Shown one piece after another: positions 16,335-61,943 of a DNA stretch of 64,000 nt; within the stretch, counting starts at the first letter, position 1; each line of letters begins with the position of its first letter. The stretch covers positions 480,001 through 544,000 of the forward strand of contig CP084166.1 of the NCBI GenBank assembly GCA_021513695.1, in the 5' to 3' direction. The translations under genes and the position numbers were made by a program. The stretch comes from Candidatus Heimdallarchaeum aukensis (lineage in GTDB: Archaea; Asgardarchaeota; Heimdallarchaeia; Heimdallarchaeales; Heimdallarchaeaceae). The notes below the pieces were generated by a model, which saw nothing but the letters and a program-made list of their open reading frames with translations, was not told the DNA's origin and did not search any database.

Positions 16335-16346
16335 ATAACTTATGGA

Positions 16347-19031: not shown

Positions 19032-19043
19032 ATAACTTATGGA

Positions 19044-20999: not shown

Positions 21000-21111
21000 G
21001 GTAAACCACTAACTAACTTTTAAAATAATTAAATCAAAATTTTTAAGCGTTACTAAAAACAAATATGTAAATAAAGCAATTACAAGGTAAAAATCCGTCA
21101 TCTTACTCAAC

Positions 21112-21690: not shown

Positions 21691-21926
21691 TAGTCTATGC
21701 TCAATGCATCTCTTAAGTAAAAAATTTTCATGTTTTACTTCATTATCAGTAAGTTTAGTAAAATGTTCAATCCATTTTTTCTTTCCCTCACTTATATATT
21801 CGATGTAATTATTTTTTTTCCACTTGTCAAAAAATTTTGAGTAGACTAAACCCTTGTTTGCACATTTATAGTTTTCATAGAAAAAGTTTTGTTCATTAAA
21901 CTTATGTCCTTTATAGATTACATTAG

Positions 21927-22223
21927 TCAGTTTTCATTCACCTCAACCTTGGCTTGAGCTAGTTTTTTTAGCCATCCAAGGAACTCTAAAGTTTCTATCT
22001 GTGCAAGAATATACTCATCTTGTGTTGCATTTGTAATGTTATAAATTAAATCATTAGAATCTGTAAAAATATTCACCTTTTTTAACCATGTTTCTATAAT
22101 ATCAACAATTTTTTTATGGGCCTTTTTATCGCCATTATCGGGTTTAGGAGTTGCACTTGCTAGTTCCATTGCAATGGCTTGTCCAAGACCATTCATTACA
22201 ATTGTAGCTGGTAAACTTTTCAC
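21927..22223 (-). CDS. cmr5: Cmr5 (Cas11 small subunit).
   Basis: 98-aa helical protein between cmr4 and cmr6. It carries an NGLGQAIAMELAS-type motif resembling the Cmr5 GLG region. The call rests on position and size. Confidence 0.5.
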   Translation of the reverse strand: MKSLPATIVMNGLGQAIAMELASATPKPDNGDKKAHKKIVDIIETWLKKVNIFTDSNDLIYNITNATQDEYILAQIETLEFLGWLKKLAQAKVEVNEN

Positions 22224-22327
22224 ATAACTTAAAAAGCTTGAATTGTTTATTTCGTCATCATCAATTACTTCATTTATTGATGCTAAAGCAAATTTAGCCC
22301 TATCGTTATCTGATAAAAACTCCAGAT

Positions 22328-23275
22328 TTATTCACCTCCTTTATCTGCATCAATTTTATCTATATGATGAATGATTTTTTCTGCATAATCCAGTTTTACA
22401 TGAAACCAACCTTGACCAACAGTTTCATTTCCTCCGATCTGGAGAAAACAACTATTAGTTAATAAATTGTCCAAAAAATCAATTCCATCTTCCTCAGAAA
22501 AAACTAAGCAATACATTAGAGTATCAGAGGAAATGTACTCTTCGTACCACAAATTTCTGCTTGACTTTGTCTCTGAATTTAATATATTCCTTGCTCGTAT
22601 TTCTAACCCAAAATTTGCGAACCATTTAAAATCATCATTATGAAGTATAACAAGCTGGTCTTTTAGTCTGTTCCTTACATCATCATCGGGTATCATAGCT
22701 GATAATAAATTAGCCAAATTGTCTATACCTTCACTTTCTTCTTTTTCAAATTGCCGTTCTTCAAGAAAAATATATTGTTCATTCACACAAGATAGAGTTT
22801 TTCCTCTTGTCACTTCGGGAATTGTAAATGAATATTTTATTCCTAAGCGTTTTAGGTCTCTTTTCAGTCTTTCTAATATATATGGACAAGTAATCCATCT
22901 ATAATTCGTCAATAAACTTCGTACTGGTAGCAATAGTAAGCGTGCATCAGAAATTAATAATTTTCCAGCAGAATCAGAACTTCCAAAGTACTTATCAACC
23001 TTTTTATTTGTTATATTAGAATTAACACCAACATTCTCATTAGCTAAACCACGCAGTGAGCCTTTTAAACTAGTGCTTGGTATGAAAGGATAACTTGTAA
23101 TTGTTTCACGAGCTACGGGACAATCTACTATTGATGTAGGATGTCCAGTTCCTGTATGAACAAATGTTTCAGCCAACATTTTCATTATTTTCCCTTTTAA
23201 ATTCGACTTCTTTTCATTTTGTTCCATATTAATCACCTCTTTCCCATTTTCCAAAAAGAAATTGTCCAAATCCAA
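22328..23275 (-). CDS. cmr4: Cmr4 (Cas7 backbone RAMP).
   Basis: FIPSTSLKGSLRGL and a C-terminal G-rich loop QIGGNETVGQGWF. 315 aa from the longest start. The true start is probably an internal Met (MEQNEKK or MKMLAETF), because the longest start overlaps the cmr3 3' end by 47 nt. Confidence 0.7.
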   Translation of the reverse strand: MDLDNFFLENGKEVINMEQNEKKSNLKGKIMKMLAETFVHTGTGHPTSIVDCPVARETITSYPFIPSTSLKGSLRGLANENVGVNSNITNKKVDKYFGSSDSAGKLLISDARLLLLPVRSLLTNYRWITCPYILERLKRDLKRLGIKYSFTIPEVTRGKTLSCVNEQYIFLEERQFEKEESEGIDNLANLLSAMIPDDDVRNRLKDQLVILHNDDFKWFANFGLEIRARNILNSETKSSRNLWYEEYISSDTLMYCLVFSEEDGIDFLDNLLTNSCFLQIGGNETVGQGWFHVKLDYAEKIIHHIDKIDADKGGE

Positions 23276-24389
23276 ATTCAGTTAATTTACCTATTTTATT
23301 GGAAACCAATCTTTTTAATGAAGATGTATTTTTTTCATCAAAAAAGAATGTAGACCCTGGAGGAATAAAAGGTCTGACTTCTAGAGGTTCTTTTTTTACT
23401 GCATTCCATCCTCCAATGCGAAGAATATCACCAATGTTAGCACCTATAACCTCAGAACCAAACTTTTTTGACAAAAATGTCATAACTTCATCTAGAGAAT
23501 CTCCTAAATATGCAGGAGTAATAAATGTAATTGTAAAATTATCAGAAACTGTTGAAATAGGGGGTATTTTATCAATTACTGGGAATTCTATTTCCTTGTA
23601 ACTAATATTAGCTATCTTTCCTTCTCCACCTATACGGTTACACCAATTTTCAATTGAGTCAAGTAAATCAATACCATTGACTTTCATACAAAGTACAATA
23701 TTTTCTAACCTTATCATTTGACGCGAAAATAAATTTCCAGTAACTGCAGTATTGGTTGTAGGATCTATTTCAATACCAATCTCATTTTCTTTTTGCCATA
23801 ATTTATTCTCAGAGAGAAAACGAACATTTTTAAGACTTTCAGAAGAAAAGGACAATAATCTTTCTAGATCATCAAATTTAACATAATAATTTTGTAATGT
23901 TTTATAACCATAATTACCACTTCTTCTTGGAAGTAAAATACTCTTTCTATCATGTTTGTCTTTACTTATACTTGACAAATACTTTTGTTTAGAAGGAATT
24001 AAATAATCCAGATCTACAATCTCTTCGTTTTTTTGAGAGGAAATGTGTCCAATTATATGTAAAGGAACAGGAAATAAAGGATGAAATTGATTATCCTCTT
24101 TTAATAATAAGTAAGGACCAAAAAAGTCTAAAGGCCCAAGATCGGTACCATCACCCAATTTACTAATTATATTTTCATCCCATTTACTGCTTCCATCCCA
24201 TCCATAATATCGAGCTAGTAAGGATCTTATTAGTCCAGTAATTGAAAATGGAGATGGTGGAAAAACACTTTTAACAAAATCTGACGAACTATCACTTTTA
24301 TAGAAAGAATAGTTTCCTCTAAAAAACAACCTATCTAAAGGTTCAATTATGAAACACTGTTCCTTAGCCATTTTTATTACCAACCCCAT
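23229..24389 (-). CDS. cmr3: Cmr3 (Cas5-group RAMP).
   Basis: The N-terminus FIIEPLDRLFFRGNYSF matches the Cmr3 IxPLDPLFFRDG signature. 386 aa. Lies between cas10 and cmr4. Confidence 0.7.
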   Translation of the reverse strand: MGLVIKMAKEQCFIIEPLDRLFFRGNYSFYKSDSSSDFVKSVFPPSPFSITGLIRSLLARYYGWDGSSKWDENIISKLGDGTDLGPLDFFGPYLLLKEDNQFHPLFPVPLHIIGHISSQKNEEIVDLDYLIPSKQKYLSSISKDKHDRKSILLPRRSGNYGYKTLQNYYVKFDDLERLLSFSSESLKNVRFLSENKLWQKENEIGIEIDPTTNTAVTGNLFSRQMIRLENIVLCMKVNGIDLLDSIENWCNRIGGEGKIANISYKEIEFPVIDKIPPISTVSDNFTITFITPAYLGDSLDEVMTFLSKKFGSEVIGANIGDILRIGGWNAVKKEPLEVRPFIPPGSTFFFDEKNTSSLKRLVSNKIGKLTEFGFGQFLFGKWERGD

Positions 24390-48399: not shown

Positions 48400-49512
48400 A
48401 TGGTATCGAGTGAGTTAGAATTATACATAAAAATAGCGCAAATAACTCTTATAACATTTATTCTTGCATACTTTATCTACAGAAGAATAAAAGATAAGAT
48501 TACTGGATTTAACTGGTTTATTTTCTTATTCATTTCAGCCTTAACTCAAGGTATTGTTGAAATGATTTTATATGGATTAACATCAAATGGTTCTATTTCA
48601 GAAAATTCTACTCTACAAGAAGTACATATCATTCCTTATGCAGTTGGGTTATTCACCTTATTCTTATATTGCGAACTAATAATGAGAGAAAGACCAAATG
48701 AGATATTATTGAGCTTTATGACTTTACTGATTGGAGCTTATTTAGCAACTTTTTCTCTAGAACTAGCTTTTAACTTAAATACAGATATCCTTCCTAAATA
48801 TCGTTTAAATAGATTAATTTTCAACATTTTCCAATTTTTTGTTCTATTGGAAGCAACACTAATGTTTGCACTGGATGCGAAGAGAGTTGAATATAAGAAA
48901 CTTAGAAGAATTTCTCTTGTTATAGCAATTGCAATAGGTACATCTGCAGTTTTTGCTTTCTTCAAAATATTGGAATACTGGGTTCTTCCTTTTTCCTTTT
49001 ATGGAGCGATACCTTATGGAATTTTATTTGGAGTTTTAGCAATTGAATTTATTGCCAATCCATTCTTTGTTTATTTGCTACCGTCAAGAATAAACAAAGT
49101 TGTAGTCATAGACGATTCTGGAGTTTTACTATTTGCTGTTAGAGTTGGAAAAGAAGAACCTGACATAATCGAAGACACATTACTTTCTGGAACACTTTCT
49201 GCTATGAAATCAGTAATAAAAGAAACAACAGGAACACAAACAGAACTTCAAAAAATAGAGTTCAGAGATAAATATATGATAGTTGCAGAGAATGAAGAAA
49301 AAACAATTTCTACGATTATTATATGCGACAGAGATTCATTTATGCTACAAACAGCAGCAAGACAATTTATCAACGCCTTTGCTAAAGAGTTTAAAGAACA
49401 TTTAGAAAAGTTTGATGGATCAATTGGTAGGTTTGGTGCTGCTACACATCTAGTGCGACGTATCTTTCCTTTTGTTCCACCTAAGGAAATAGTAGAAGTA
49501 AAAGAAAAGTAA
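48400..49512 (+). CDS. Polytopic membrane protein (about 7 TM) with a C-terminal cytoplasmic Roadblock/LC7 (MglB)-like domain. Paralog 1 of 3.
   Basis: N-terminal 230 aa are hydrophobic helices. The C-terminus VVVIDDSGVLLFAVRVG...LSGTLSAMKSVIKE...IEFRDKYMIVAENEEKTISTIIICD...AARQFINAF has the roadblock beta-alpha-beta-beta-alpha pattern. Same architecture as 51373-52479 and 57404-58516. Confidence 0.4.
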   Translation: MVSSELELYIKIAQITLITFILAYFIYRRIKDKITGFNWFIFLFISALTQGIVEMILYGLTSNGSISENSTLQEVHIIPYAVGLFTLFLYCELIMRERPNEILLSFMTLLIGAYLATFSLELAFNLNTDILPKYRLNRLIFNIFQFFVLLEATLMFALDAKRVEYKKLRRISLVIAIAIGTSAVFAFFKILEYWVLPFSFYGAIPYGILFGVLAIEFIANPFFVYLLPSRINKVVVIDDSGVLLFAVRVGKEEPDIIEDTLLSGTLSAMKSVIKETTGTQTELQKIEFRDKYMIVAENEEKTISTIIICDRDSFMLQTAARQFINAFAKEFKEHLEKFDGSIGRFGAATHLVRRIFPFVPPKEIVEVKEK

Positions 49513-49651
49513 TAAGTTAGGGTTCAATTCTCTTTTTTTTAGTTTCTCTTTTATTTGAATATTAATCAAAAAGTTGGAAGAAAAAAATAAATAGTTGTTT
49601 AAGAAGCTAGAGAATTAGCAAAACTTAATCATTAAAAAATTGTAGATAAAA

Positions 49652-50545
49652 ATGGAGATTGAAGAAAAAGATAAAGTAAAACATGCTAATAAGGATAAAG
49701 AGAATACGATATACGGAGATTTTAGATCTTTAGGTTTCCTATTTCTTTTTACAGTCTTAACGGCAACAATTCTTTCTCTCGTTGATTTTTCTGTCTTAAG
49801 TAATGCAAAATGGCTTTTATCCTTATTGTTTGTTGCAGATCTAATTTTGTTAATATTTATACTACTTGTTCATAGGAATTTTATAACTATAACAGGTTTC
49901 ATAATTACAGAACAATTAAAAGAGATGTTTATTCCAAAGAAAAGAAACAAAGAAAGATTTCTAAAAAAGATTAACAAGTGGAACAGAAAACAAAAATCAT
50001 ATATAAAAGATGCAAAAGAACTTAAAGAATTGATTCCAAAGCTTATTGGATTAACTCTAATTTATTATTTGCTTATTTTCACTATCTTGTTTGATCCCTC
50101 AGCACTAACAGGTTATGGAGCATATTTCACTGTTATGTATTGGGCTTTTATTCTCTTATATGCCTTTGTTTTTCTCTTCATTATGAGATTATTTAATAAA
50201 CATCCCTTAATTTCTGGAGGAATATTTTGGGGTCTAAATGGACTATCTGTTTTTGGTTTAAAAGTACTTAATCCTATTCCTTTGTCTTTATTACTTTATA
50301 TAGCTGGTAAGAAATCATCTGAAATGAATGATGCAATCATTAGCATTATGCAAAAAACATTAATTGCTAAATTTATTTTTGCAGTTTTAAATGTTGTTAG
50401 TGTAATTGGTATAATTGTTTATTCTTTTAGAAACGCAATGAACTTTAACTTTAGTCCAGACTTAATTGTTTTTAAAGAACAATCTGCAGAAGACAACAAG
50501 AAAGAATTTCGTGGAACTGATAACCAAATTAACAAAGAAGAATAG
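49652..50545 (+). CDS. Membrane protein, hypothetical.
   Basis: 297 aa with multiple hydrophobic segments. Ends 5 nt before the IS6-like insertion. Confidence 0.3.
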   Translation: MEIEEKDKVKHANKDKENTIYGDFRSLGFLFLFTVLTATILSLVDFSVLSNAKWLLSLLFVADLILLIFILLVHRNFITITGFIITEQLKEMFIPKKRNKERFLKKINKWNRKQKSYIKDAKELKELIPKLIGLTLIYYLLIFTILFDPSALTGYGAYFTVMYWAFILLYAFVFLFIMRLFNKHPLISGGIFWGLNGLSVFGLKVLNPIPLSLLLYIAGKKSSEMNDAIISIMQKTLIAKFIFAVLNVVSVIGIIVYSFRNAMNFNFSPDLIVFKEQSAEDNKKEFRGTDNQINKEE

Positions 50546-50557
50546 ATATTCGCTAGA

Positions 50558-51320
50558 GGTAGTGTCTAGTTTTCTTCCGACAAAAATATTTGTGGGGACT
50601 CTAATAGTAAGATATGAAAACACAAAAACTATCTACTCTTTTTAAGAGATGCAGAGTCCCCAAAAAGATAATAATAAAAGCGATTTATGAATATATTGGT
50701 TCAAAGAATGGTTTGAGGACAGTAGCATGGAAGAATGGTTTAACGCATCAAACATTATGGTATTGGGTAAAGAAGTTCAGGCTCTTTAGGGAAAGTTTAC
50801 ATAGAGTTGTAGCAGAAAGAGGGGGAATACCAGAGATTATAGTAGTTGATGAAACAGAGATTAAGACCTCTCAAGGCTCAATATATCTGTGGTTCGCGTT
50901 AGATCCTTACAACAAGACTTTACTGGGTTTTAGTATTACTAAAGGACGGAGTAATCTTGAATGTTTACTAACTTTCCGTTATTGGTTCAAATGTTGGGGT
51001 TTTAAGCCCCGTATTGTCGTTACAGATGCAGGGGTATGGTATCCTGTCTTACTTCGTCTCGGTATCAAAATCTCTGTTATCAAAGGTGGTTTACGCTCCT
51101 ATATTGAACGTTTTAATGCCACCCTTAAGAGTTATCATTGGTTTCATTCTATTCTTCACTGTACTTGTCCTATCCGTGCCGTCTATGGCTCTACTCATCT
51201 TTCTGGTTTCCTTACTCTCTTTATGCTCCATTTTAATTTCGTTCGTCCTCATCAGAGCTTGGGACATCCTCCCCTTAGTTCTTTTTTACCTAGGAGGTGG
51301 TATAAAAACTAGACACTACC
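50558..51320 (+). mobile_element. Intact IS6-family-like insertion sequence (about 763 bp) with 16-bp perfect terminal inverted repeats and a flanking direct repeat.
   Basis: IRL GGTAGTGTCTAGTTTT at 50558-50573. IRR AAAACTAGACACTACC at 51305-51320. Flanked on both sides by ATTCGCTAGA (50548-50557 and 51321-51330), consistent with a target-site duplication. Higher GC than the surroundings. Confidence 0.7.
50614..51312 (+). CDS. DDE transposase, IS6-family-like.
   Basis: 232 aa. IIVVDETEIK (D), IVVTDAGVWY (D), YIERFNATLK (E), C-terminal FNFVRPHQSLG. The overlapping ORF 51014-51382 is rejected. Confidence 0.6.
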   Translation: MKTQKLSTLFKRCRVPKKIIIKAIYEYIGSKNGLRTVAWKNGLTHQTLWYWVKKFRLFRESLHRVVAERGGIPEIIVVDETEIKTSQGSIYLWFALDPYNKTLLGFSITKGRSNLECLLTFRYWFKCWGFKPRIVVTDAGVWYPVLLRLGIKISVIKGGLRSYIERFNATLKSYHWFHSILHCTCPIRAVYGSTHLSGFLTLFMLHFNFVRPHQSLGHPPLSSFLPRRWYKN

Positions 51321-51372
51321 ATTCGCTAGAACTATCAAAGTTTTTAAATAAGTACTTCTTCCTTTTTCTAAT

Positions 51373-52479
51373 ATGGATTTAAATTTTGTAGTTTCACTTA
51401 CTATCGCAATTTTCATGTTTATTTTAGGAATTATTTTCATAGTTCAATCAATAATTAAGAAAAGAACAGCGTACGTTTTTACTTCTTCAATGTTTATAGG
51501 GATGATTGCTTCTCTTATAGAAGTCTTTAGAGTAAGTAAATTACCTAATTTGGATTTTAATTCAAGCGTTTTACTTGTAATTCATTTATCATTTTGGTGC
51601 TTGATGTATCTACTTTCTTTGATTTTCTTCATTCAGCTTGAAAAAGAAAAAATCTTATCCTATATACTTCCAGTCGTCATGATTATTTATGTTCTACACA
51701 TAACTTTCGGGATTTTTTGGATTTACTCTGGTTCTTTTCCTGATCAAGCTCAGTCAACAATAACTATGTTATGGGACTTAACTTACGCTCTCATGGGAAT
51801 ACTCACTTTCTCTTACGGTGCTTATGTCCATTTTAAAACTGGAATAAAAGCACATGAAAAAGAAGGTTATTTGTTAGGAGGAGCACTCATTTTAATAAGT
51901 ATTGGCTTCCTTTTGGGTTTCATTAAAGATTTAGGTGTAAAAGTTGATATTCAAAGTATTCCTGTTGGAGAAGTACTTAAATTAATAGGTATTTTCACCT
52001 TTATTATATTCTACATTGCAAAACCAGATTACATCTTCAGATTACCTTTCCAAATTACTTCAGTTCTTGTATTTAACAGACTTGGAATGTTAATCTATTC
52101 AGCACAATATTTGACTGAAGATGGTGATGAGGAAATAGATCCTGATGATACATCGATGGAGCTAATTACTGCAGCAGTAAATGCATTTTCAACCTTTATG
52201 AAAGAAACAACTGGAAGCGAAGAACCTCTAAAAAGAGTAAAAACAGGAGATAAACTTCTGATAGTAGAACAAGGAGATAAATGTTCTATAGCAATAATCT
52301 CTACCTCTTCTAGTTATTTCATGATACAAAGCATGAGGAAAGTAATTAAGGAACTAGAAAAGAGATATGAAAAAGAACTAGAACTTGATTATACTGACTC
52401 TACCTTTTTCAATGAAGTACCGAAACTTATTTCCTACTCTTTTCCATTCTTGGGAATACCAAAAAAAGAATTGTATTAA
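51373..52479 (+). CDS. Polytopic membrane protein with a C-terminal Roadblock/LC7-like domain. Paralog 2.
   Basis: Same N-TM / C-roadblock-like architecture (…VLVFNRLGMLIYSAQYL…LITAAVNAFSTFMKE…VKTGDKLLIVEQGDKCSIAIIS…). Confidence 0.4.
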   Translation: MDLNFVVSLTIAIFMFILGIIFIVQSIIKKRTAYVFTSSMFIGMIASLIEVFRVSKLPNLDFNSSVLLVIHLSFWCLMYLLSLIFFIQLEKEKILSYILPVVMIIYVLHITFGIFWIYSGSFPDQAQSTITMLWDLTYALMGILTFSYGAYVHFKTGIKAHEKEGYLLGGALILISIGFLLGFIKDLGVKVDIQSIPVGEVLKLIGIFTFIIFYIAKPDYIFRLPFQITSVLVFNRLGMLIYSAQYLTEDGDEEIDPDDTSMELITAAVNAFSTFMKETTGSEEPLKRVKTGDKLLIVEQGDKCSIAIISTSSSYFMIQSMRKVIKELEKRYEKELELDYTDSTFFNEVPKLISYSFPFLGIPKKELY

Positions 52480-52495
52480 AAAAAATCTTTTTTTT

Positions 52496-53617
52496 CTATT
52501 CTTCTTCTTTTTCAAAAGGAAAGACATAATTTAGTTTAAGATCATCGCGTAAAAAGATTAGGTCTCGAGCAATACTATCATTAATTGGTACACCATGCTC
52601 TCTTACTCTCTTTTCTGCTTCGTATTCTTTTTCTCCAGCAGTATAAATTCTTGATTCACCAGGAGCTTTTTTAGAGTTCCTGAGCTCTCTACATATCGAA
52701 CCAGAAATCTTTTTGAAAATATTTACATCAATAAAATGTTCTACGTTTATCGCAATAAAGAAATGACCAATCATAAAGTGCCTAAAAGAACCATCTTCGT
52801 TCAACCCACTTAAATCCTTTAGGAATTTTCCGTTCTGTAAAGCTGAAGATAATATCTCTACAACAGTAGAATAACCATACCCTTTATGTCCAGATAATTC
52901 TTCTCCCTTTCCTCCAAGAGGTAAAAGTGCAGCCTTTCCATTCACAAAATCAGAGATGAGCTGCTCAGCATCAGTTCTATACTCTCCAGTTTCAGTGTCT
53001 ATTACACAACCTAAAGGAAGATCTTTATTTTCCCGAGCATAAACTTCAACTTTTCCTCTTTGAATAATAGATGTAGCACAATCCAAAACAAAAGGAAAAG
53101 CTTCATCAGTAGGTATACCAAAAGTCAAAGGATTAGTGCCTAACATAGGCTCAACACCAAAAGTAGGTGCAACAGCAGGACGAGCATTTGTACCAGTAAT
53201 CCCTATACAGTTCTCTTTTACAGCCATAAGAGCATAATAACCAGCAATACCATAATGAGTACCATTACGAACAACAACCATACCTATACCAAACTTCTTA
53301 GCCTTAGAAATAGCAAGCTCCATAGCTTTATAGGAAATATAATGACCATTACCATGATGGGCATCAATAACAGCAATAGCATCTTTATCTTTAACAATTT
53401 CATATTTGCTAATAAGATGTTGCTTTCTCTTAATACGGTCATAATAATATTTTAATCGCTGAACACCATGACTTGTTATCCCGCGAAGATCTGACTCAAT
53501 TAAAACATCAGCACTAACTTGAGCTTCCTCAACAGGATAACCCAAAGAAACAAAAACATCTCGAATAAAATCATGCAATAAATCAACTGAAACATATTTC
53601 TGATTGGAATCTGTCAT
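52496..53617 (-). CDS. Ldh_2-family (malate/L-lactate/L-sulfolactate dehydrogenase type 2) oxidoreductase.
   Basis: 373 aa. HHGNGHYISYKAMELAISKAKKFGIGMVVVRNGTHYGIAGYYA matches the Ldh_2 family core. Confidence 0.55.
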   Translation of the reverse strand: MTDSNQKYVSVDLLHDFIRDVFVSLGYPVEEAQVSADVLIESDLRGITSHGVQRLKYYYDRIKRKQHLISKYEIVKDKDAIAVIDAHHGNGHYISYKAMELAISKAKKFGIGMVVVRNGTHYGIAGYYALMAVKENCIGITGTNARPAVAPTFGVEPMLGTNPLTFGIPTDEAFPFVLDCATSIIQRGKVEVYARENKDLPLGCVIDTETGEYRTDAEQLISDFVNGKAALLPLGGKGEELSGHKGYGYSTVVEILSSALQNGKFLKDLSGLNEDGSFRHFMIGHFFIAINVEHFIDVNIFKKISGSICRELRNSKKAPGESRIYTAGEKEYEAEKRVREHGVPINDSIARDLIFLRDDLKLNYVFPFEKEEE

Positions 53618-53959
53618 CTCATTCTTAACTTAAAATTAGTCAATATAAATATTGTTTAAAATAGAAAAAAAATAAAAGAAATTCAAAAAATAAATTTCCA
53701 AAAAAAATTATCTGTATTATCTTTACATTGCTAAATTAAATATAAAATATCCATACAAATAGTTTTTTAGATACTACAACAGAATATCGCATTTATTATC
53801 ATTTATAAAGAAGTAGCATTTTTAAAGAAATTTTTTTTTTGTTTTTTTTTGAAGCATACTGTTTTGCAAAAAAATGTAGAAAATGATAAATAAATCTTTG
53901 AAACAACTAAATAAAAAACTTGAAACATAACAATTAACATTTACTTTTTTGAGAAAAAG

Positions 53960-54523
53960 TTATGATTTTTTCATTTCAAGCTGATTTACCAACCATGTAA
54001 ATGCTTCGTTTACTCCTGTTCCGTTTATTGCACTGCAGTCAAACACTGCAAAAGTTCTATCTTTCATTTCTAAATGTAGTCCTAGCAATTGTATTAGCAT
54101 TGGTGCTTGTATTGATTCTGGTAGATCTTGTTTATTTGCTATTATCAGGCAAGGTATTTTTTCTAAATACGGATTGTTAAATACATGAACTTTTAATATA
54201 TCTCTCGCTTCTGGCAATCTTTCTATATCTGCTGCATCTATTACAAATATTACTGCTGAACTTCCTGGGTAATGCACTTCCCATAGAAATCTGAACTGTT
54301 TTTGTCCTGCTACATCTACTATAGTAATATTCCAATCTGCAAAGTTTACTGTATCTATGTTTTGTCCTATTGTTGGTACTGTATCTTGAAAGTCTCCTGT
54401 GTTTACATATTTCATTAATGTAGTCTTACCTGCTGAATCTAAGCCTAAAACGATAATTTTAGCCTTTTTTTCTGATTTAAGTTTTTTCCTTAACCAAGAA
54501 GAAAACGATAGTTTAGAGCTCAT
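53960..54523 (-). CDS. Arf/Sar/Arl-like small GTPase.
   Basis: N-terminal amphipathic helix. G1 LGLDSAGKTTL, G3 VDVAGQKQFRFLWEVHY (Arf WDVGGQ...LWRHY pattern), G4 IANKQDLP. 187 aa. Confidence 0.7.
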   Translation of the reverse strand: MSSKLSFSSWLRKKLKSEKKAKIIVLGLDSAGKTTLMKYVNTGDFQDTVPTIGQNIDTVNFADWNITIVDVAGQKQFRFLWEVHYPGSSAVIFVIDAADIERLPEARDILKVHVFNNPYLEKIPCLIIANKQDLPESIQAPMLIQLLGLHLEMKDRTFAVFDCSAINGTGVNEAFTWLVNQLEMKKS

Positions 54524-54615
54524 TGTGTATTATTTCTTTATTCTAATTACCCATTAATAAAAATTGTCTAAGTCTTCAACAATAAAAAAAGAAAGTGATA
54601 AATCTTAAAAAAAAA

Positions 54616-56808
54616 TTATTGGTGTTTCTTTGCTAATTCTATTAGTTCAGGAAAGTCCATTCCTAGTTCTTTTAATTTTTCTATAGTAGGTACACCGTTT
54701 TCTGTCCATCCTCTTCTTTCATATACAGCTTTTTTCAACTTTTCATACCTTTCTTCTCTGTATTTTCTTATTGCGGCCATCTTTTCTTCTACTGTCATGT
54801 TTGTTGGATCTACACCTACTTTTTCTTTTAGTTCTTTAAGGTAGTATTTGTCTTCTCTGGACAGGTATTCTTCTTTTGTTACTGGACCCATAGCTCTAAA
54901 GGGTATAGTGTCTAATTCTTTGTAAGTTACACCTTCTGGAATGAAAAGTAAATTCATTACTCTTTGGAAGTTATAGACTCTTTCACTCATTTTAATATAT
55001 TCTCTAGAATCTATATTATTACCTGTTACACTATTGAAGTATTGGACATAATTTAGAACGTGTTCTGGCACTTTTGCAGGGTCGGCTAGATCTTCAGGAA
55101 CAGTCATTCCATGCTTTTCTATCTTTCCTTCTGCAAATTCTTTATTATCTTCTGGAACAATATCGTTCCAAGGTAACTTACATAGACCTAATAGTCCAAA
55201 GGAAGTTCTCCACATTGGGAACCACCATAGAGCTTCTGCTTTTTGTTCGAAAGTGGGCATAAAGTTATGCACCATGTCTAGAAAGATTAACCATGCTTCA
55301 TCGTGCTGTGGTCCCTTGAGTGTAAGACCATATCCTCCTTGTTGTGCAAGTGACTCTTTTGTCATATATTCGCTAAATTCTAGACCTTTAGATTCCATTC
55401 CTATATCGTCCAAAAGTTTGGCTTCTTCCTCACTCAAGTTAAACTCTTTCTTGAAGTACTCTTTCATGTATCTAATTCCTTTACCGAATATTTTACCGAA
55501 CCCATCTCCTTTTGCTACTTGGTGAATAACTTCCATTGCTCCTTCAAAATTGCCCCAAGAGAGATCTATTCCTCCAGTTCTTTCTTTGTTTAATATTCCG
55601 TATTCGTAGCACTCCATACAGAAGGCCATACCTGTTCCTACACTAATAGTATCTAAACCATAGTTATCACAATAGAAATTAACTTCAATAACATGGTCTG
55701 GGTCCCACATGTACCAGTTAGAACCTACTCCAGCAGCTGTTTCATATTCTGGACCGTCGACAGTTACTTTTTGACCTTTGTATGGTCCAGTTTTACATTC
55801 AAAACTACTCACACCATGAGTACATCCTACTGTACATCCTTTCCAACATGGGTCTGGTCCTTTTTCAAATCTCTTATAATAAGCTTCTTTACCTATTTTT
55901 TCTGCTTGTGGGTCAGAACCAAATTTGAAGTTCTTTGTTGGTAAAAGGTCAAAATCATTCATTATTGGAATCAAATGTATAGTTCCAATATTTCTCATAT
56001 CGTTTTGCTTTGGATCGAGTTCAGTTATTTCTTTACTGTGTCTCTTGGCTACTTCTTTCTCTGCTTCAGGATTAGCAGGATTGTTAGATTTGACGTTAAC
56101 ATTGCTTTTTCTTACAACTAGAGCTTTTATTTTCTTATTTCTAAATACAGTTCCTGTTCCTCCTCTTCCGGCTTGTTTATATCTTACATATCCTCTTTTA
56201 CCGTCAAACCAACTGAAATTTAAGCAACCCATATAAGCATTTTCTGCTCCAGGACCTGCAGATACAACAGAAATATTTCTTTTATCTTTTTCATCTACTG
56301 CATATCTCTCAGTAAGTATTTTTCCTATCTGAAAAGTTTCTGAAGGTAAATCTTCTGCTTCTTCGATGATTATTTTTCCATTATCTCCATCAATAAAAAT
56401 GACTAATTCTTTTTCTGCTTTACCTTGAATGGCCATAGCATCGAAACCTGCAAATTTGAGAAAAGGACCAAAATATCCTCCAACGTTTGAATCAACCAAA
56501 ATACCAGTTAATGGAGAAATGGCTGTTACAATACTTTTACCTGAACCAGGATAGTTGGTTGTTCCACCTAATGGTCCAGAAGCTATACAAAGAACATTAT
56601 CTGGGTCATCCCATTTTACTTTTTTGTCTTTAGGAATATATTTCCAAGTTAGCCAAAGATCAAATCCCCTTCCACCTATGAATTTTTCTTTCATTTCTTC
56701 TGTAACATCTTCTATTTTTGCTTCTAACGTTTCTAAATTAATGTACAATGTTTTGTTAGCATATCCTTTATCTATTACTGGAACTTCATAATTTATCTCT
56801 TTAATCAT
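54616..56808 (-). CDS. aor: Aldehyde:ferredoxin oxidoreductase (AOR) family tungstopterin enzyme.
   Basis: N-terminal AOR domain (INLETLEAKIEDVTEEMKEKFIGGRGFDLWL), characteristic internal Cys/Glu/His-rich pterin and 4Fe-4S binding regions. 730 aa. Confidence 0.7.
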   Translation of the reverse strand: MIKEINYEVPVIDKGYANKTLYINLETLEAKIEDVTEEMKEKFIGGRGFDLWLTWKYIPKDKKVKWDDPDNVLCIASGPLGGTTNYPGSGKSIVTAISPLTGILVDSNVGGYFGPFLKFAGFDAMAIQGKAEKELVIFIDGDNGKIIIEEAEDLPSETFQIGKILTERYAVDEKDKRNISVVSAGPGAENAYMGCLNFSWFDGKRGYVRYKQAGRGGTGTVFRNKKIKALVVRKSNVNVKSNNPANPEAEKEVAKRHSKEITELDPKQNDMRNIGTIHLIPIMNDFDLLPTKNFKFGSDPQAEKIGKEAYYKRFEKGPDPCWKGCTVGCTHGVSSFECKTGPYKGQKVTVDGPEYETAAGVGSNWYMWDPDHVIEVNFYCDNYGLDTISVGTGMAFCMECYEYGILNKERTGGIDLSWGNFEGAMEVIHQVAKGDGFGKIFGKGIRYMKEYFKKEFNLSEEEAKLLDDIGMESKGLEFSEYMTKESLAQQGGYGLTLKGPQHDEAWLIFLDMVHNFMPTFEQKAEALWWFPMWRTSFGLLGLCKLPWNDIVPEDNKEFAEGKIEKHGMTVPEDLADPAKVPEHVLNYVQYFNSVTGNNIDSREYIKMSERVYNFQRVMNLLFIPEGVTYKELDTIPFRAMGPVTKEEYLSREDKYYLKELKEKVGVDPTNMTVEEKMAAIRKYREERYEKLKKAVYERRGWTENGVPTIEKLKELGMDFPELIELAKKHQ

Positions 56809-56928
56809 ATTAATACACCCGAGAATATCGTTATAAATACGAAAAAAATCAACTATATAATTTTAACTCTATCTCGTCAAGTATTAAAGAAAACTAACTT
56901 TTTCTTTTAACTAAAAAGAAAGTTAACT

Positions 56929-57348
56929 TTACGAAGAATTATCAATCTTAAATTTATTAGCATTTTTGGGTTCGTGTCCAGCTTCAAAAGATTGTATCTC
57001 AAGAGTATATCTGTCAGGATCATTAAAGAAGATGTTATAAATTTGATATTTTTCGTACATACTAGGCTCTTTAGTTAGATTGACACCTTTCTCTTTAAGG
57101 TATTTCGCCCAAAGATTCACTTCATCTGGTGTTTCAACAACTAATGTTAAACATGTTTTCTCAGGATTTGAAATTTCTTCACTTGTTTCACAGAATCCCC
57201 AGTAACCATTTGAACCTATGTTATAAATTATACAGTTTGTCTGCTCTAAGGCAACTTCAAGTTCTAATAGACCAGAATAGAACTTTTTATTTTCTTCTAA
57301 ATTTTTTGTTTTCAAAAAGGTAATAGGATAAATAATTTTTGGAAGCAT
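56929..57348 (-). CDS. Small VOC/glyoxalase-like protein (tentative).
   Basis: 139 aa. beta-alpha-beta-beta-beta-like pattern (ITFLKTKNLEENKKFYSGLLELEV...). Weak call. Confidence 0.25.
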   Translation of the reverse strand: MLPKIIYPITFLKTKNLEENKKFYSGLLELEVALEQTNCIIYNIGSNGYWGFCETSEEISNPEKTCLTLVVETPDEVNLWAKYLKEKGVNLTKEPSMYEKYQIYNIFFNDPDRYTLEIQSFEAGHEPKNANKFKIDNSS

Positions 57349-57403
57349 ATATTAAATAAGTTATTCTTCTTTTAAAAATTTCTTGAGAATGTATGGATTT
57401 TTT

Positions 57404-58516
57404 TCAAACTCCAACTGTTAGTTTTGATTCATCTACAAATGGGAAGTACAATGGAATGTATTTCACTGCATCATCGAAAACAGAGGCATCTCCGCTAAAA
57501 CATACAATCTGCTCTCTAAACATTGAATTAAACTTGTTTACAAAATGTTCAAGTGAAGTGTCAAATATCCTTACCCTTCTATCAACTATTAACACTCCGA
57601 TAATATCATCTTTCTCTTTGGTTATCATGACTCTATCTTTTAGTTCAACACATTTTAATAACTGATAGGATGAATTGGTTACTTCAGAAATAAAATGAGC
57701 AAAAGCGTTAATCATTCCCCCAATTAACAAACCCTCTGATTCTTTTTTAGAATAGTTTGAAGCAGAGAAAAGAGTTGTTCCATTTTTATTAATTATTAAG
57801 AAGTTAAAAATCTCTGCAGAAGTGAATAAGACAAATTTAGGGTCAATTAAATAAATGACCAAAGTTACACCGAGAGCTAACCCAAAACCTATAGCACCAT
57901 ATGTTTCTAAAGGAACTACATGTTCCAAAAATTCCAAAATAGCCACTATAAAAGCTATAAAGAAGCTTATCCATAATAGTAATGTATGATATTGAGCTTT
58001 TTTACCTACACTCTTAACAAAGGTAAAAGTTATTCCTACTAAACATACTGTAACAACATATAGTTGAAAAAAATCTAAAAACCAAATATATAAACAGTCA
58101 TTCTTTGTTGGAACCTTCAAATTCGTAGAGATCGGGGGTAAATCAAAGAAAATATTTATCAAATAAGTAACAAATAAAGAAAAAATAATAATGTAACCTG
58201 CTTGAACTACTCTACGATCCCAAGCGTTGAAGTTACTAAAATGTATTAAAATATATAGAAATACAAGAGCATAAGGAATAATCTCTAAAGAAGGTAAATA
58301 ACTATTTTCTAAATATGCCCACTGATAACCTGCTACACGGGCAAAATAGAAAAAGAATTCTACTACACTTTGTATAATCGCCAGAATTAATGCAGCAATT
58401 AAATTTTTATAACCTTGAACTTTGTTTACTGTGCTCCGATAAGAAAAAACACCTAACATAATCAAAATAATAACAACTTGAAATAGTTTGAATATCGCTT
58501 GGCTTAGAGTTTCCAA
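57404..58516 (-). CDS. Polytopic membrane protein with a C-terminal Roadblock/LC7-like domain. Paralog 3.
   Basis: Same architecture. C-terminus …FLIINKNGTTLFSASNY…LIGGMINAFAHFISE…VELKDRVMITKEKDDIIGVLIVD…. Confidence 0.4.
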   Translation of the reverse strand: METLSQAIFKLFQVVIILIMLGVFSYRSTVNKVQGYKNLIAALILAIIQSVVEFFFYFARVAGYQWAYLENSYLPSLEIIPYALVFLYILIHFSNFNAWDRRVVQAGYIIIFSLFVTYLINIFFDLPPISTNLKVPTKNDCLYIWFLDFFQLYVVTVCLVGITFTFVKSVGKKAQYHTLLLWISFFIAFIVAILEFLEHVVPLETYGAIGFGLALGVTLVIYLIDPKFVLFTSAEIFNFLIINKNGTTLFSASNYSKKESEGLLIGGMINAFAHFISEVTNSSYQLLKCVELKDRVMITKEKDDIIGVLIVDRRVRIFDTSLEHFVNKFNSMFREQIVCFSGDASVFDDAVKYIPLYFPFVDESKLTVGV

Positions 58517-58647
58517 AGTAAATCAATTAATTGATTATATTTCTATTATATTAAATTTATGTAAAAATGCCAAAGTTACATTTTAGAAAAGATATTGAAA
58601 AAATATACTAAAACTTCTTGAATTACATATTTTTCTTTAATGAGATA

Positions 58648-58935
58648 TCATCCCCCTGCAACAAAAGGAAGTATCGATATTTCAGTTTTATCTTCAGTTA
58701 CTAGATAAGTTGACAGCTCTTCATGATGAATAGTTTTGCTATTTATCATTATATTATAAAAAGAATGTAGCTTTTTATTTGTAAATAGGAGTCCATCAAG
58801 CTCTGGATACGTCTTAGTTAAAAATTCTATTGCTTCTAAAACAGTTATTTCCTTATCTTCTAATTCAATTTCGACTTCTGCTTTATTTCCTAAAGTAGAC
58901 CTTAACTGACCAAACAAGCGAAAAATAACTCTCAT
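58648..58935 (-). CDS. MoaD/ThiS-like ubiquitin-fold sulfur-carrier or small modifier protein ending in Gly-Gly.
   Basis: 95 aa, beta-grasp-like, C-terminal ...LPFVAGG followed by a stop. Confidence 0.5.
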   Translation of the reverse strand: MRVIFRLFGQLRSTLGNKAEVEIELEDKEITVLEAIEFLTKTYPELDGLLFTNKKLHSFYNIMINSKTIHHEELSTYLVTEDKTEISILPFVAGG

Positions 58936-59000
58936 TCTTTTTCCTCTGATAAGATAAAGTAGATTAAAAGAATAAAATTGTTATGTTTTGTCAATTCTTT

Positions 59001-59561
59001 TTATATAGAATTTACCTCAAAGAATTTGACTATATTTTCTATAAGAGTAATAAAAGCTCTTTCTACATTTTCTCCTGTTTTAGCTGAAGTTTCTATATAA
59101 GGTACTTCGAATCCACTCCAATTACTTAGGCTTTTGGCATAATCTGCAGCATATTCATATGGTACTGCATTAGGAGTTGAATCACGAAGATCAGATTTGT
59201 TTCCAATTAAAAGCATAGGAACAATCTTATTTTTGTTATTCTTGATTAACTCATGAATCCAATTAGGTAATAATTCATATGTTTCAGGTCTTGAAATGTC
59301 AAAAACTAGCAAAGCACCTGAAGTTCCTCGATAATATACTTCTCTCACTGCAGAAAAACGTTGTTGTCCTGCTAAATCCCATATCTGTAGAGTATACTCA
59401 ATATTATTTAGTAGCATTTTCTTTACTGCAAAGTCTGCACCTACTGTCATGGCATATCCTGATTCAAAAGTTTCTCCTAAATATCGACGTCTTAACGATG
59501 TTTTACCTACTGCTCCTTCACCAAGCAATGAAACTTTAAAGATTCTCTGCACTTTTTTCAT
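59001..59561 (-). CDS. Rab/Ras-like small GTPase.
   Basis: G1 LLGEGAVGKTSL, G3 LQIWDLAGQQRF...YYRG (Rab WDTAGQERF...YYRG pattern), G4 LLIGNKSDL, G5 ETSAK. 186 aa. Confidence 0.75.
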   Translation of the reverse strand: MKKVQRIFKVSLLGEGAVGKTSLRRRYLGETFESGYAMTVGADFAVKKMLLNNIEYTLQIWDLAGQQRFSAVREVYYRGTSGALLVFDISRPETYELLPNWIHELIKNNKNKIVPMLLIGNKSDLRDSTPNAVPYEYAADYAKSLSNWSGFEVPYIETSAKTGENVERAFITLIENIVKFFEVNSI

Positions 59562-59717: not shown

Positions 59718-61088
59718 ATGAGTGAAGAAACAGTTGTTATTCAAAATCCTTTACTAGTGTGTAAGTACATTAAAAAATTTACTCATTATCCAGAATTTGA
59801 TAGAATTTTAATAGATAATTTAGATTGGAAAAGAGAAGATATTATTGGAATCTCCATTATTCCTATTGTAGATACTGTTCCATCAGGCAAAAATGCAATC
59901 TTTAGAATATTTATTTCAAACATGGGAGAAACAACACAAAAGGTAAAAGTTCATGTTCGTACTTTTGGTTATTTAAGCAAAAAAGAAAAGTTAAATAGAA
60001 GCCAAATAGCATTTAAAAAATTAATTATCAACAACAATGAAGTATGGTATAGAGATGTTATCATACCAAGTGATATAAAATTAGGTAAAAACTTTTTCCA
60101 GCTTGTCGTTAAATATAAAGTAAACAAAAAGAAAAGAATAATCTATGAAATTAAAGAATATACAGAGATTATGCCTTTAGATCATATAAAACAGATTGCC
60201 AGACAAAACTTTTTAGGACTTGCCCAAAAGCCCTACATTGATCCTTCTTCAATAAGTTATTGGATATATTGCTCTCTTTTTGGTTCTAGAAATTATTCAA
60301 AAGAACCAACTTTCATTTATATAACTAAATGGATTGTTTTTCTTCTAAGTATTTCTACTATTGGTGCTTACTTCACTTTACCTTTACCTGAAATAGTTCT
60401 TTATATCAGTTCAGGAGGAGCTTTGCTTTCTTTCCTAACCTTTTTTACTGATTTAGATAGACATACAGTCCGTGAGATACATGATTTAGGTTTAACTGAA
60501 TTAAAAAGAAAAGCCTTCATAGATAACATCCCGAAAAAAACCGAATGGCTTAAGTTATTCACTCTGAAAAGTGATTATTTCTATTTCATTGAAGAAGAAT
60601 CAACTTTTGCATGGAAAACTAGTACAGATAATTCATTTAAACCAGTTATTTATTCTTTAAATCAAGTTTTAGATACACAATTAAGTATAAAAGAAGGAAC
60701 AAAAGAAGAGGAAGAAAGAATAATTGAAGAAATAATAACTAATAGGAAAATAGAAAAAATTAAAACAAAAACAAAAACGAAAGAAGAAGTAGAAGAACAC
60801 GAAGGTATTGTTTTTGAAGAAGATTTGTCCATAAGTTTTGATGCAAAGATGCAAATACTTGATAGTATAACTTCATATACTGTACCTAGCAAAGCAATTG
60901 AATTAGAAGATAGTTTTGAACTTCCTGTAGAAATAATAAAAACAGAAACATTCATAGAACCTGATTCTGTAGCTTTTGATGTTTTAGATAAACCTTTTAC
61001 AACTGATTTAGAACCAATAATTACAGACAGTGAAAGTATAGACTCTAAAGGTTCACTGAAATTCAAGAAAACAAACATAGATGTATAA
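59718..61088 (+). CDS. Hypothetical protein with a central TM segment and a Glu/Lys-rich acidic C-terminal region.
   Basis: 456-aa ORF. Hydrophobic stretch IVFLLSISTIGAYFTLPLPEIVLYISSGGALLSFLTFF. The C-terminus has TKTKTKEEVEEHEG...EEDL. Confidence 0.25.
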   Translation: MSEETVVIQNPLLVCKYIKKFTHYPEFDRILIDNLDWKREDIIGISIIPIVDTVPSGKNAIFRIFISNMGETTQKVKVHVRTFGYLSKKEKLNRSQIAFKKLIINNNEVWYRDVIIPSDIKLGKNFFQLVVKYKVNKKKRIIYEIKEYTEIMPLDHIKQIARQNFLGLAQKPYIDPSSISYWIYCSLFGSRNYSKEPTFIYITKWIVFLLSISTIGAYFTLPLPEIVLYISSGGALLSFLTFFTDLDRHTVREIHDLGLTELKRKAFIDNIPKKTEWLKLFTLKSDYFYFIEEESTFAWKTSTDNSFKPVIYSLNQVLDTQLSIKEGTKEEEERIIEEIITNRKIEKIKTKTKTKEEVEEHEGIVFEEDLSISFDAKMQILDSITSYTVPSKAIELEDSFELPVEIIKTETFIEPDSVAFDVLDKPFTTDLEPIITDSESIDSKGSLKFKKTNIDV

Positions 61089-61181: not shown

Positions 61182-61943
61182 TTGGTCGATTCAATGATTA
61201 CTGGAACACATCCTTCAACTATTGCCGAAGAAGATTATTTTTCATTTATTGGTATTTTTCTTTCAGTTCCGTTTTTTATTGCTTATTTTGTAAATGAGAT
61301 GATTCTAGCTTTATTCAGACTCACAAAATACGAAAGAGAGATTGGAACACCTGTTACTGCCCCTTATCCTACTTGGAGAATGATTAATGCTGTTATTTAT
61401 GCAGTAGCAATTATTATTTTAGCTCTTCAAGTTTTAAGTTGGAGTGTAACCTATCGAAGATATGAATTCAGAAAACTTGCAAAAAGAACTGTTTTTGCTT
61501 TTCTTATTACAGCTATTTTTGTAATTATTTTTGAGTACTTACAGATTTCAATGCCTGTTCAACCTAGAGATCAATCAGATATTACTGTGCCATTTTTCAC
61601 TTTAGTAGGCTTTCATTTGTGGTCTTTTGTTAGTTTTAAACAAGTTATAGAGCATTTAGGAAAACATTACAAAACTAGAGTAGGTGATTCTATATTTTAC
61701 ATTCTCTTTGCAAGCTATCCATTCATTAAATTTGGATTACCCATAATATTATTGATATTTGTCAGTTTGGCAATGTCTCCTTATGCTTTTATTCTCTATT
61801 CTGAAATAACAATGGCATACCTAGTCGGTTTCATTTCAATTGCTCTTGGTGTTGTTCTTATAAATGATGTTGTTAAAATTGGAAGAGCGCAAGATCATTA
61901 TTTTTTCACAAAAGAGAGCACCGAAAACAAAAAAGAGGATTAA
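61182..61943 (+). CDS. Integral membrane protein, hypothetical.
   Basis: 253 aa with about 6 predicted hydrophobic helices. Overlaps the downstream convergent gene by 4 nt. Confidence 0.25.
   Translation: MVDSMITGTHPSTIAEEDYFSFIGIFLSVPFFIAYFVNEMILALFRLTKYEREIGTPVTAPYPTWRMINAVIYAVAIIILALQVLSWSVTYRRYEFRKLAKRTVFAFLITAIFVIIFEYLQISMPVQPRDQSDITVPFFTLVGFHLWSFVSFKQVIEHLGKHYKTRVGDSIFYILFASYPFIKFGLPIILLIFVSLAMSPYAFILYSEITMAYLVGFISIALGVVLINDVVKIGRAQDHYFFTKESTENKKED

Follow-up and report, generated by a model that had tools for sequence, protein, structure and literature searches.

How do Asgard archaea control their many eukaryote-like small GTPases? These organisms also encode numerous longin and roadblock proteins. 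We analysed a locus of Candidatus Heimdallarchaeum aukensis (contig CP084166.1, assembly GCA_021513695.1, positions 480,001 to 544,000; this whole 64-kb stretch is referred to below as the window) in which three proteins of about 370 amino acids (aa), here denoted A, B, and C, are encoded together with an Arf-like and a Rab-like GTPase inside 11 kb. The original prediction held that the three proteins carry a polytopic membrane domain and a roadblock-like tail, and that they form a candidate regulatory module with the GTPases. We find that A, B, and C consist of a seven-helix membrane domain followed by a cytoplasmic longin-like domain, an architecture of which we are highly confident. Taken as a whole, the best explanation is that they belong to a family of Asgard membrane sensors whose longin domain would act as a transmitter, most likely as a platform for small GTPases; to this combined reading we give about even weight.

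All five genes were recovered at their predicted coordinates (Table 1), and the three long proteins are paralogous, as had been claimed. In BLASTP comparisons, A and C aligned over their whole length (5e-29), A and B over the C-terminal ~150 aa (2e-15), and B and C more weakly (1e-7), the membrane domain of B being the most divergent of the three. B is 100% identical to K9W45_02055, a hypothetical protein of Ca. H. aukensis. A six-frame search for GTPases and family domains, which spanned the whole window, found these two small GTPases and these three family members only, and the clustering within 11 kb is therefore upheld. Pfam screening covered the open reading frames (ORFs) of the window up to ~24.4 kb and from ~37.4 kb onward, and the Pfam results given below for window ORFs are to be read within that range.

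Hydropathy analysis placed seven transmembrane (TM) segments at residues ~5-226 of A, B, and C, followed by a soluble tail of ~140 aa. Lysine and arginine residues are concentrated in alternate loops (in A, 12 inside vs 3 outside, in line with the positive-inside rule). The proteins are therefore predicted to be oriented with the N terminus out and the C terminus in, which places the last ~140 residues in the cytoplasm; the polytopic membrane domain of the original prediction is thus borne out. We built an AlphaFold2 model of A on 39 family sequences (mean predicted local distance difference test score, pLDDT, of 80; predicted TM-score of 0.77). The membrane part of this model scored ~74-96 per 10-residue block, mostly 86-96, and DSSP showed helices across residues 5-219, interpreted here as seven TM helices and one short helix at 71-74.

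We asked which known proteins this membrane domain resembles. The top structural matches of the predicted domain were receptors, not transporters, and aligned over 180-214 residues at 3.4-4.3 Å. No microbial rhodopsin was found among the top 60 structural matches, and TM7 contains no lysine. In the model, the helix bundle resembles the arrangement of helices in G protein-coupled receptors (GPCRs). Because a Foldseek search with the full-length model of A gave no significant match for the membrane domain (the first GPCR came at rank 50, with an E-value of 0.085), this resemblance is geometric, pertains to a predicted model, and is no proof of homology. GPCR families were absent from Pfam scans of the window proteins and of 114 family members, and no G-alpha, G-beta, or G-gamma protein was found among the window ORFs screened. 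The same scans gave weak matches to 7TMR-DISM_7TM in four of the 114 family members (E-values of at least 1.1e-3, below the cut-off), to HisKA_7TM in one of the 114, and to MerC, MtN3/SWEET, and similar families in single members.

The conservation of the membrane domain differs between the subfamily and the family. The A/C subfamily shows no variation at Q14, R28, Q50, E54, and Q145 and hardly any at I78, while H76 and P79 are conserved among A-orthologues. As judged from helix limits and topology, Q14, Q50, E54, and Q145 are buried 8-13 residues below the outer surface, and this set would have the appearance expected of a ligand or ion pocket. Over the family at large, such positions vary; the residues that are near-invariant family-wide are P228 in the linker, G241 in the first hairpin, and F356-P357 at the C terminus. 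The start of C, which has a bearing on TM1, is most likely the TTG codon at position 58516, because a start there keeps the conserved K11 and Q14 of TM1: the first 19 residues hold the family-conserved lysine and glutamine of this helix. Two public homologues (P0042 and P0043) are annotated as proteins of 351 aa that begin at an internal methionine, which would delete most of TM1.

Is the cytoplasmic tail a roadblock domain? DSSP applied to the model of A revealed a ββαβββαα domain at residues 231-355, with a five-stranded antiparallel sheet sandwiched by helices, as in the longin superfamily; the predicted domain terminates in a conserved FPF motif. A separate model of the C-terminal 149 residues had the same order of elements (pLDDT 75). 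When this C-terminal model was compared with the PDB using Foldseek, all 28 of the 28 matches with E<1e-3 had the longin/roadblock superfold. The best of them were TRAPPC1/Bet5 (4.6e-5) and TRAPPC4/Trs23 (TM-score of 0.55-0.65), and MglB (3e-4 to 1e-3), Mon1-Ccz1, zeta-COP, and sigma-adaptins were also found; LAMTOR and the Streptomyces Roadblock/LC7 domain 3kye (1.2e-3) lay just above the 1e-3 limit, at 1.1e-3 to 1.2e-3. When PDB sequences were searched with a profile built from 39 diverse C-terminal domains, TRAPPC1 ranked first (E 0.0074) and Trs23 second (E 0.0093). These values are borderline, and both proteins also head the structural matches. In Pfam searches with single proteins, A matched Robl_LC7 (E 0.068, 13.4 bits vs a cut-off of 23) and C matched Intu_longin_1 (E 0.013), both below threshold, and B matched nothing. 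The commonest sub-threshold matches among the 114 family members were Fuz_longin_1 (11 members, best 1.4e-4) and Sybindin (5), with Robl_LC7 in only 2. In roadblock domains the first element is a helix (αββαβββ). Here TM7 runs straight into the domain, with no soluble helix ahead of β1, so the roadblock assignment holds at the level of the superfold and fails in the order of elements. On the predicted model, the domain is a longin domain that lies closest to the TRAPP subunits Bet5 and Trs23, which is a more exact description than roadblock-like.

This architecture is not confined to the window. A word-indexed search with A returned 37 proteins, all from Heimdallarchaeota metagenome-assembled genomes (MAGs) and all without Pfam domains, and a full hidden Markov model (HMM) search of 1.84 billion cluster representatives returned 1950 at E ≤ 1e-3 and 604 at E ≤ 1e-10. 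Among the 150 matches listed, most are 350-390 aa long and align with the profile from end to end. The members that bear names come from Heimdallarchaeaceae, Kariarchaeaceae, Hodarchaeales/Hodarchaeota, and Odinarchaeota, with one labelled Bathyarchaeota, and the family seems for the most part restricted to Asgard archaea. Neither Pfam nor NCBIfam has a model that it matched above threshold. We regard this as a new receptor architecture, that is, a new combination of two known folds in a large unannotated family. The cytoplasmic domain also occurs in other contexts: behind a large extracellular region and a single TM helix (P0165, P0171, P0174), in three copies in a soluble protein of 2171 aa (P0134), behind TPR repeats (L036), and alone, although the short sequences in this last group may be fragments. 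Tandem copies were observed elsewhere, with three in a Kariarchaeaceae contig (L038, 2-2356), several in L015 (12521-14776), and two single-TM variants of 770-790 aa side by side in L042 (2168-6952). Such frequent tandem duplication is the pattern of an expanding receptor family.

The strongest clue to function is a fusion. A metagenome scan with the Kariarchaeaceae subfamily gave no loci, and one with the C subfamily gave a single locus, L043, from a JGI metagenome. This locus encodes a protein of 625 aa in which the seven-helix and longin-like domains (family HMM at positions 1-352, E 2.5e-36) are followed by HisKA (1.5e-20) and HATPase_c (1.1e-29), so that the longin-like domain occupies the place usually taken by PAS, GAF, or HAMP transmitters. 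An archaeal Nre gene lies upstream and a response-regulator gene 3 kb downstream. Because the unit of seven helices and longin domain is fused whole to a histidine kinase, we take it to be a sensory input module. The fusion fits what Liu et al. (10.1101/2020.10.19.343400) remarked of Asgard archaea, namely that these have NPRL2-like longin domains fused to domains of two-component signalling. From these sequence comparisons, proteins of the A, B, and C type are probably transmembrane sensors, in which the bundle would detect a signal and the longin domain would transmit it. In addition to the kinase fusion, this is supported by the occurrence of the cytoplasmic domain after an extracellular region and single TM helix, by polar residues that are invariant in the subfamily yet variable in the family, and by the four weak 7TMR-DISM_7TM matches.

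We then considered whether the two GTPases are of the eukaryotic kind. The Rab-like protein scored 157.8 bits against Pfam Ras, and its best PDB match was a Thorarchaeota Rab (7ezb, 1.1e-38), followed by Rab1, Rab7, Rab11, and Ypt1. It carries the motifs GEGAVGKTS, TVGADF, WDLAGQQRF, GNKSDL, and ETSAK, in agreement with the Rab/Ras-like identity that had been proposed from WDLAGQ and GNKSDL, and has the features of a Rab-like protein save for a C-terminal cysteine, which is usually missing from Asgard Rab-like proteins. The Arf-like protein scored 162 bits against Pfam Arf (cut-off 22.3), with Arf2, Arf1, Arf6, and Arl1 as its best PDB matches (3.5e-35 and weaker), and carries GLDSAGKT, TVPTIGQN, VDVAGQ, NKQD, and CSA. 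The predicted NKQD motif was thus present, and the interswitch motif departed from expectation, reading VDVAGQ and not WDVGGQ. It has the marks of the Arf family except that Gly2 is absent and the amphipathicity of the N terminus is not significant: the maximal hydrophobic moment of the first 20 residues, which are basic, is 0.52, and 2604 of 5000 shuffles reached the observed value. The amphipathic N-terminal helix of the original prediction was accordingly not supported, being no better than shuffled sequence. With best PDB matches to Arf1, Arf2, and Arf6 on the one hand and to Thorarchaeota Rab, Rab1, Rab7, and Rab11 on the other, both proteins are eukaryote-like, and together with the Pfam matches this rejects an MglA- or Era-type identity for either.

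If receptors and GTPases work together, their genes might be expected to remain together. The neighbourhood set comprised 29 A-orthologue loci from GTDB species genomes as well as looked-up loci, on which homologues of all window genes were mapped; the genome scan was limited to A-orthologues. The recurring order is a winged helix-turn-helix regulator, A, (B), Ldh_2 on the opposite strand, variable genes, the Arf-like gene, the gene for aldehyde:ferredoxin oxidoreductase (AFOR), glyoxalase, and (C, SAMP/MoaD-like, Rab-like). In ~16 distinct Heimdallarchaeota contigs, the distance between A and an Arf orthologue is 1.8-7.6 kb, with A 47-94% identical to that of the window. The receptors and GTPases travel together in Heimdallarchaeota as a block that also holds metabolic genes, and not as operons. 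In L001, L002, L006, L018, and L026, A and B are immediate neighbours, and B is a tandem duplicate of A in the ancestral gene arrangement. In the window they are parted by an insertion of ~1.7 kb (49652-51312), which is not present in Ca. H. endolithica, where an intergenic alignment brackets it. The insertion holds a membrane ORF of 297 aa that was considered as a fourth component; it was rejected because it is unique to the H. aukensis genome, with no homologue in any of the loci L001-L034, and came with a transposase. Four genomes (that of the window, L001, L006, and L026) carry the Rab-like, SAMP/MoaD-like, and C genes as an uninterrupted run on a single strand, the intergenic distances in the window being 65 and 131 bp. 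As this triad is contiguous in those four only and is broken in L012 and L015, we rejected it as a conserved operon.

Outside the Heimdallarchaeota A-orthologues, we sampled eight loci of distant family members. A Kariarchaeaceae MAG encodes a Rab-like GTPase, 35% identical to that of the window, 30 bp from a family member and convergent with it, and at one metagenome locus a Ras-like gene and a family member are 4.4 kb apart. Two of eight is roughly the chance expectation that we estimate from the density of GTPase genes in Asgard archaea, an estimate that is loose and based in part on the small sample of loci used here.

These data suggest a mechanism. The helix bundle would sense a ligand or the state of the membrane, and TM7, together with the conserved P-x-Y-x-Y-x-L-P linker, would relay a conformational change to the longin domain. 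This domain would serve as the transmitter, which in some relatives may drive a fused histidine kinase and in the stand-alone proteins would most likely be a membrane-tethered docking or regulatory platform for a small GTPase, whether as a guanine nucleotide exchange factor (GEF), a GTPase-activating protein (GAP), or a recruiter. The first candidate partners would be the neighbouring Rab-like and Arf-like proteins. Direct coupling of the longin domain to a small GTPase in the stand-alone proteins is a tentative suggestion, made because the characterised structural neighbours work with small GTPases, because the genes cluster in Heimdallarchaeota, and because an independent adjacency exists in Kariarchaeaceae. 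The full form of this idea, a one-piece analogue of receptor-coupled G-protein signalling in which a TRAPP-like longin domain tethered to a receptor of GPCR fold is a ligand-controlled GEF, GAP, or recruiter of membrane-located Arf- and Rab-like GTPases, we consider unlikely.

Two observations weigh against the assignment of the fold: the modelled C-terminal domain is of modest confidence (pLDDT 51-85), and no longin-family sequence match exceeded the curated Pfam threshold for A, B, C, or the 114 family members. Others weigh against a sensor that works through GTPases. No receptor-GTPase operon was found in the loci examined, and A, B, and C do not show the adjacency typical of mglA and mglB: A and B lie on the strand opposite to the Arf-like gene with the dehydrogenase gene between, and the SAMP/MoaD-like gene parts C from the Rab-like gene. 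Many genomes carry unrelated genes between A and the Arf-like gene, which is usually found directly behind AFOR on the same strand (with a gap of 92 bp here, 54523-54616, and ~1.6 kb in L009), while A is always convergent with Ldh_2. One locus, L026, keeps A, B, C, and the Rab-like gene but no Arf-like gene, and the Rab-like and SAMP/MoaD-like genes of L012 and L015 are upstream of A and away from C, interleaved with two ORFs that resemble, by translation only, subunits of a thiamine pyrophosphate (TPP)-dependent decarboxylase (ComD/ComE-like). Six of the eight distant loci, including those of Odinarchaeota, Hodarchaeales, and Hodarchaeota, have no small GTPase within 10 kb. Finally, as the kinase fusion shows, a GTPase is not needed for the longin-like domain to act as a transmitter of the PAS/GAF type. 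Of the regulatory module in the original prediction, then, the co-location of its genes stands, as a conserved block, and the module itself is putative.

Under the main rival explanation, the proteins would be receptors whose longin domain is a general transmitter or small-molecule-binding module, in the manner of PAS or GAF, with partners other than GTPases (kinases, transcription factors, or their own copies). The nearby Arf-like and Rab-like genes would then be bystanders kept by an inherited Heimdallarchaeota gene order. The L043 fusion and the NPRL2-like fusions to two-component domains (10.1101/2020.10.19.343400) count in its favour, and Ldh_2, AFOR, and glyoxalase are part of the conserved block, in adjacencies tighter than that of A and the Arf-like gene. 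The scarcity of GTPases at distant loci points the same way, as does the report that small GTPase genes of the Asgard isolate MK-D1 do not, as a rule, share operons with genes for roadblock or longin proteins (Tran et al., PMC10933270). What speaks for GTPases is that every characterised protein among the significant structural neighbours, namely TRAPP, MglB, Mon1-Ccz1, LAMTOR, and the adaptor sigma and zeta subunits, either binds a small GTPase or belongs to a complex under GTPase control; that the five genes are found within 11 kb of a 64-kb window; and that a Rab-like gene is independently adjacent to a family member in Kariarchaeaceae. Weighing these, we regard the general transmitter as a substantial possibility that falls short of even.

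Alternatively, the seven-helix domain could be a transporter, channel, or membrane enzyme, regulated by the longin domain and belonging to the neighbouring metabolism (the sulfolactate-type dehydrogenase, AFOR, and glyoxalase). A always faces Ldh_2, C follows the glyoxalase and AFOR genes, charged and polar residues are conserved within the membrane (E54, Q14, Q50, Q145, and E92), and single members have the weak matches to MerC, MtN3/SWEET, and similar families noted above. We nevertheless find this quite unlikely: the top structural matches are receptors, the seven-helix and longin unit is the N-terminal input of a histidine kinase, the cytoplasmic domain recurs, in the manner of receptors, in single-TM proteins that have extracellular domains, and distant family members sit in unrelated metabolic contexts. 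It is also conceivable that the locus is no functional unit, and that a gene for one membrane protein was locally duplicated in a genome rich in GTPases. A and B arose by tandem duplication, such copies are common elsewhere in the family (three in L038, two in L042, several in L015), and the rough density estimate, based in part on the sampled loci, predicts a GTPase within 10 kb about one quarter of the time, which matches the two of eight observed. Against this, the block persists across Heimdallarchaeota genomes in which A is only 47-55% identical, despite insertions and inversions, and two GTPases and three paralogs in 11 kb, with none in the other 53 kb, are unlikely by density alone; we consider this explanation very unlikely. 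The reading that we prefer thus remains that of a membrane-sensor family with a longin transmitter, for which a small GTPase is the likeliest partner.

How does this family compare with known systems? The likeness to TRAPP Bet5/TRAPPC1 and Trs23/TRAPPC4 (Sybindin, PF04099) consists of the fold and a weak sequence similarity below Pfam thresholds. TRAPP subunits are soluble and form a multi-subunit complex with Bet3, whereas here the domain is fused behind seven membrane helices and its GTPase binding is putative; no Bet3/TRAPPC3-like gene was found among the window ORFs screened. MglB with MglA and the CvnB proteins of Streptomyces conservons share the superfold, as well as the general plan in which a sensor in the membrane is combined with a roadblock-type platform and a small GTPase. 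Streptomyces conservons include a membrane sensor kinase, and MglB and CvnB are encoded beside their GTPase in operons. The domain of A, B, and C, in contrast, has no starting helix, the genes are not in operons with GTPases, and the GTPases are of the Arf and Rab type and not MglA. The 7TMR-DISM and HisKA_7TM receptors follow the same logic, with a seven-helix input and a cytoplasmic signalling module, and the L043 protein likewise carries HisKA-HATPase_c; unlike 7TMR-DISM receptors, however, the family has no extracellular domain of the DISMED type, its Pfam matches are far below threshold, and a cytoplasmic longin module was not found described for these bacterial families. The predicted model resembles eukaryotic GPCRs in the arrangement of helices only: sequence homology is not detectable, no heterotrimeric G protein was found among the window ORFs screened, and coupling is proposed to occur through a covalently attached longin domain. 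The Asgard NPRL2-like fusions of Liu et al. are a further case of longin domains in prokaryote-style signalling proteins. The text of Liu et al. makes no mention of a seven-helix membrane domain or a stand-alone family of ~370 aa, and the family may already carry an asCOG number in the tables of that study. A full-text literature search found no paper describing an archaeal seven-helix protein with a longin domain, and transmembrane longin proteins are unmentioned in Tran et al. (PMC10933270) and in the study of Asgard Arf proteins (PMC11914678).

According to the latter study, Asgard Arf proteins have no identified regulators (PMC11914678), and the family described here is a concrete, testable candidate for the control of GTPases at the membrane. 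Its named members are mostly from Heimdallarchaeia, including Hodarchaeales, with others from Odinarchaeota. Hodarchaeales have reportedly been proposed as the closest relatives of eukaryotes. Were the one-piece analogue of G-protein signalling true, the proteins would be the first identified native regulators of Asgard small GTPases and a possible forerunner both of the coupling of GPCRs to G-alpha and of longin-based control of organelle identity. Should the partner not be a GTPase, the family would still be of value, as archaeal transmembrane sensors of a new class whose cytoplasmic module is of eukaryotic type, and as one more case of prokaryotic seven-helix proteins in which the helices are arranged much as in GPCRs.

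The genes that surround the receptors point to a particular metabolism. Ldh_2, the SAMP/MoaD-like gene, and the decarboxylase-like ORFs occur together with AFOR and glyoxalase, which suggests, from sequence similarity, an island of sulfonate, 2-oxoacid, and aldehyde metabolism interleaved with signalling genes. In most of the ~16 Heimdallarchaeota contigs, the Arf-type GTPase is tied to AFOR, a tungstopterin enzyme. The SAMP/MoaD-like protein matched Pfam ThiS (3.9e-10) and, below the cut-offs, the NCBIfam models SAMP1 (8e-13) and moaD_arch (5e-11), and is probably tied to AFOR rather than to the receptors. In L012 (4226-5604) its gene comes after two ORFs resembling, by translation only, the TPP subunits of sulfopyruvate decarboxylase (ComD/ComE-like). 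The Rab-like gene is adjoined by genes for two unannotated membrane proteins (59718-61088 and 61182-61943) that are kept beside it in L001 and L012; the L001 homologue of the first has a weak Presenilin match.

Table 1. Features of the 64-kb window, in window coordinates
Feature	Position	Strand	Description
Biotin ligase	542-1288		Megasynthase cluster
Acetyl-CoA carboxylase carboxyltransferase	1402-2976		Megasynthase cluster
1506-aa ORF	2998-7518		Enoyl-reductase-like, KS, AT domains
2653-aa ORF	7577-15538		KS, AT, two ACP, KR, DH, PPTase domains
Paralog A	48400-49512	+	370 aa; seven-helix membrane domain at residues ~5-226, cytoplasmic longin-like domain at ~231-356
Membrane ORF	49652-50545	+	297 aa; polytopic (six TM); inside the insertion between A and B
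rve/DDE-type transposase	50614-51312	+	Pfam rve/rve_3, weak match
Paralog B	51373-52479	+	368 aa; architecture as A; family HMM 2.3e-50
Ldh_2 gene	52496-53617	opposite to A	Closest to L-sulfolactate dehydrogenase, below cut-off
Arf-family small GTPase	53960-54523	-	187 aa; Pfam Arf 1.3e-47; directly downstream of AFOR gene
Paralog C	57404-58516	-	370 aa; TTG start; architecture as A; downstream of Rab-like and SAMP/MoaD-like genes
SAMP/MoaD/ThiS-like ubiquitin-fold protein	58648-58935	-	95 aa; VAGG end; between Rab-like gene and C
Rab-like small GTPase	59001-59561	-	186 aa; Pfam Ras 2.3e-46

Two further regions of the window were noted. On the minus strand, positions 19770-24389 hold CRISPR-Cas genes for Csm6 (CARF-like, 6H, and HEPN), two RAMP proteins, and Cmr3, which are consistent with a type III-B (Cmr) locus; ORFs were scanned to 24364, and the locus probably extends to ~27569. 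At positions 542-16838 lies a fatty-acid/polyketide megasynthase cluster of bacterial or eukaryotic style in an Asgard archaeon, which in addition to the genes in Table 1 holds an alpha/beta hydrolase and a biotinyl carrier protein. The end of the cluster is part of a tandem direct duplication of ~2.7 kb (15000-17069 and 17696-19765), in which three probes of 300 nt were 100% identical at a spacing of 2696-2697 bp. Its copied content comprises the PPTase end of the megasynthase, the genes for the hydrolase and the biotinyl protein, and a portion of Csm6, with 17074-17661 encoding a truncated Csm6 HEPN domain. The duplication is either very recent or an assembly artefact. The megasynthase cluster itself may bear on fatty-acid synthesis in Asgard archaea.

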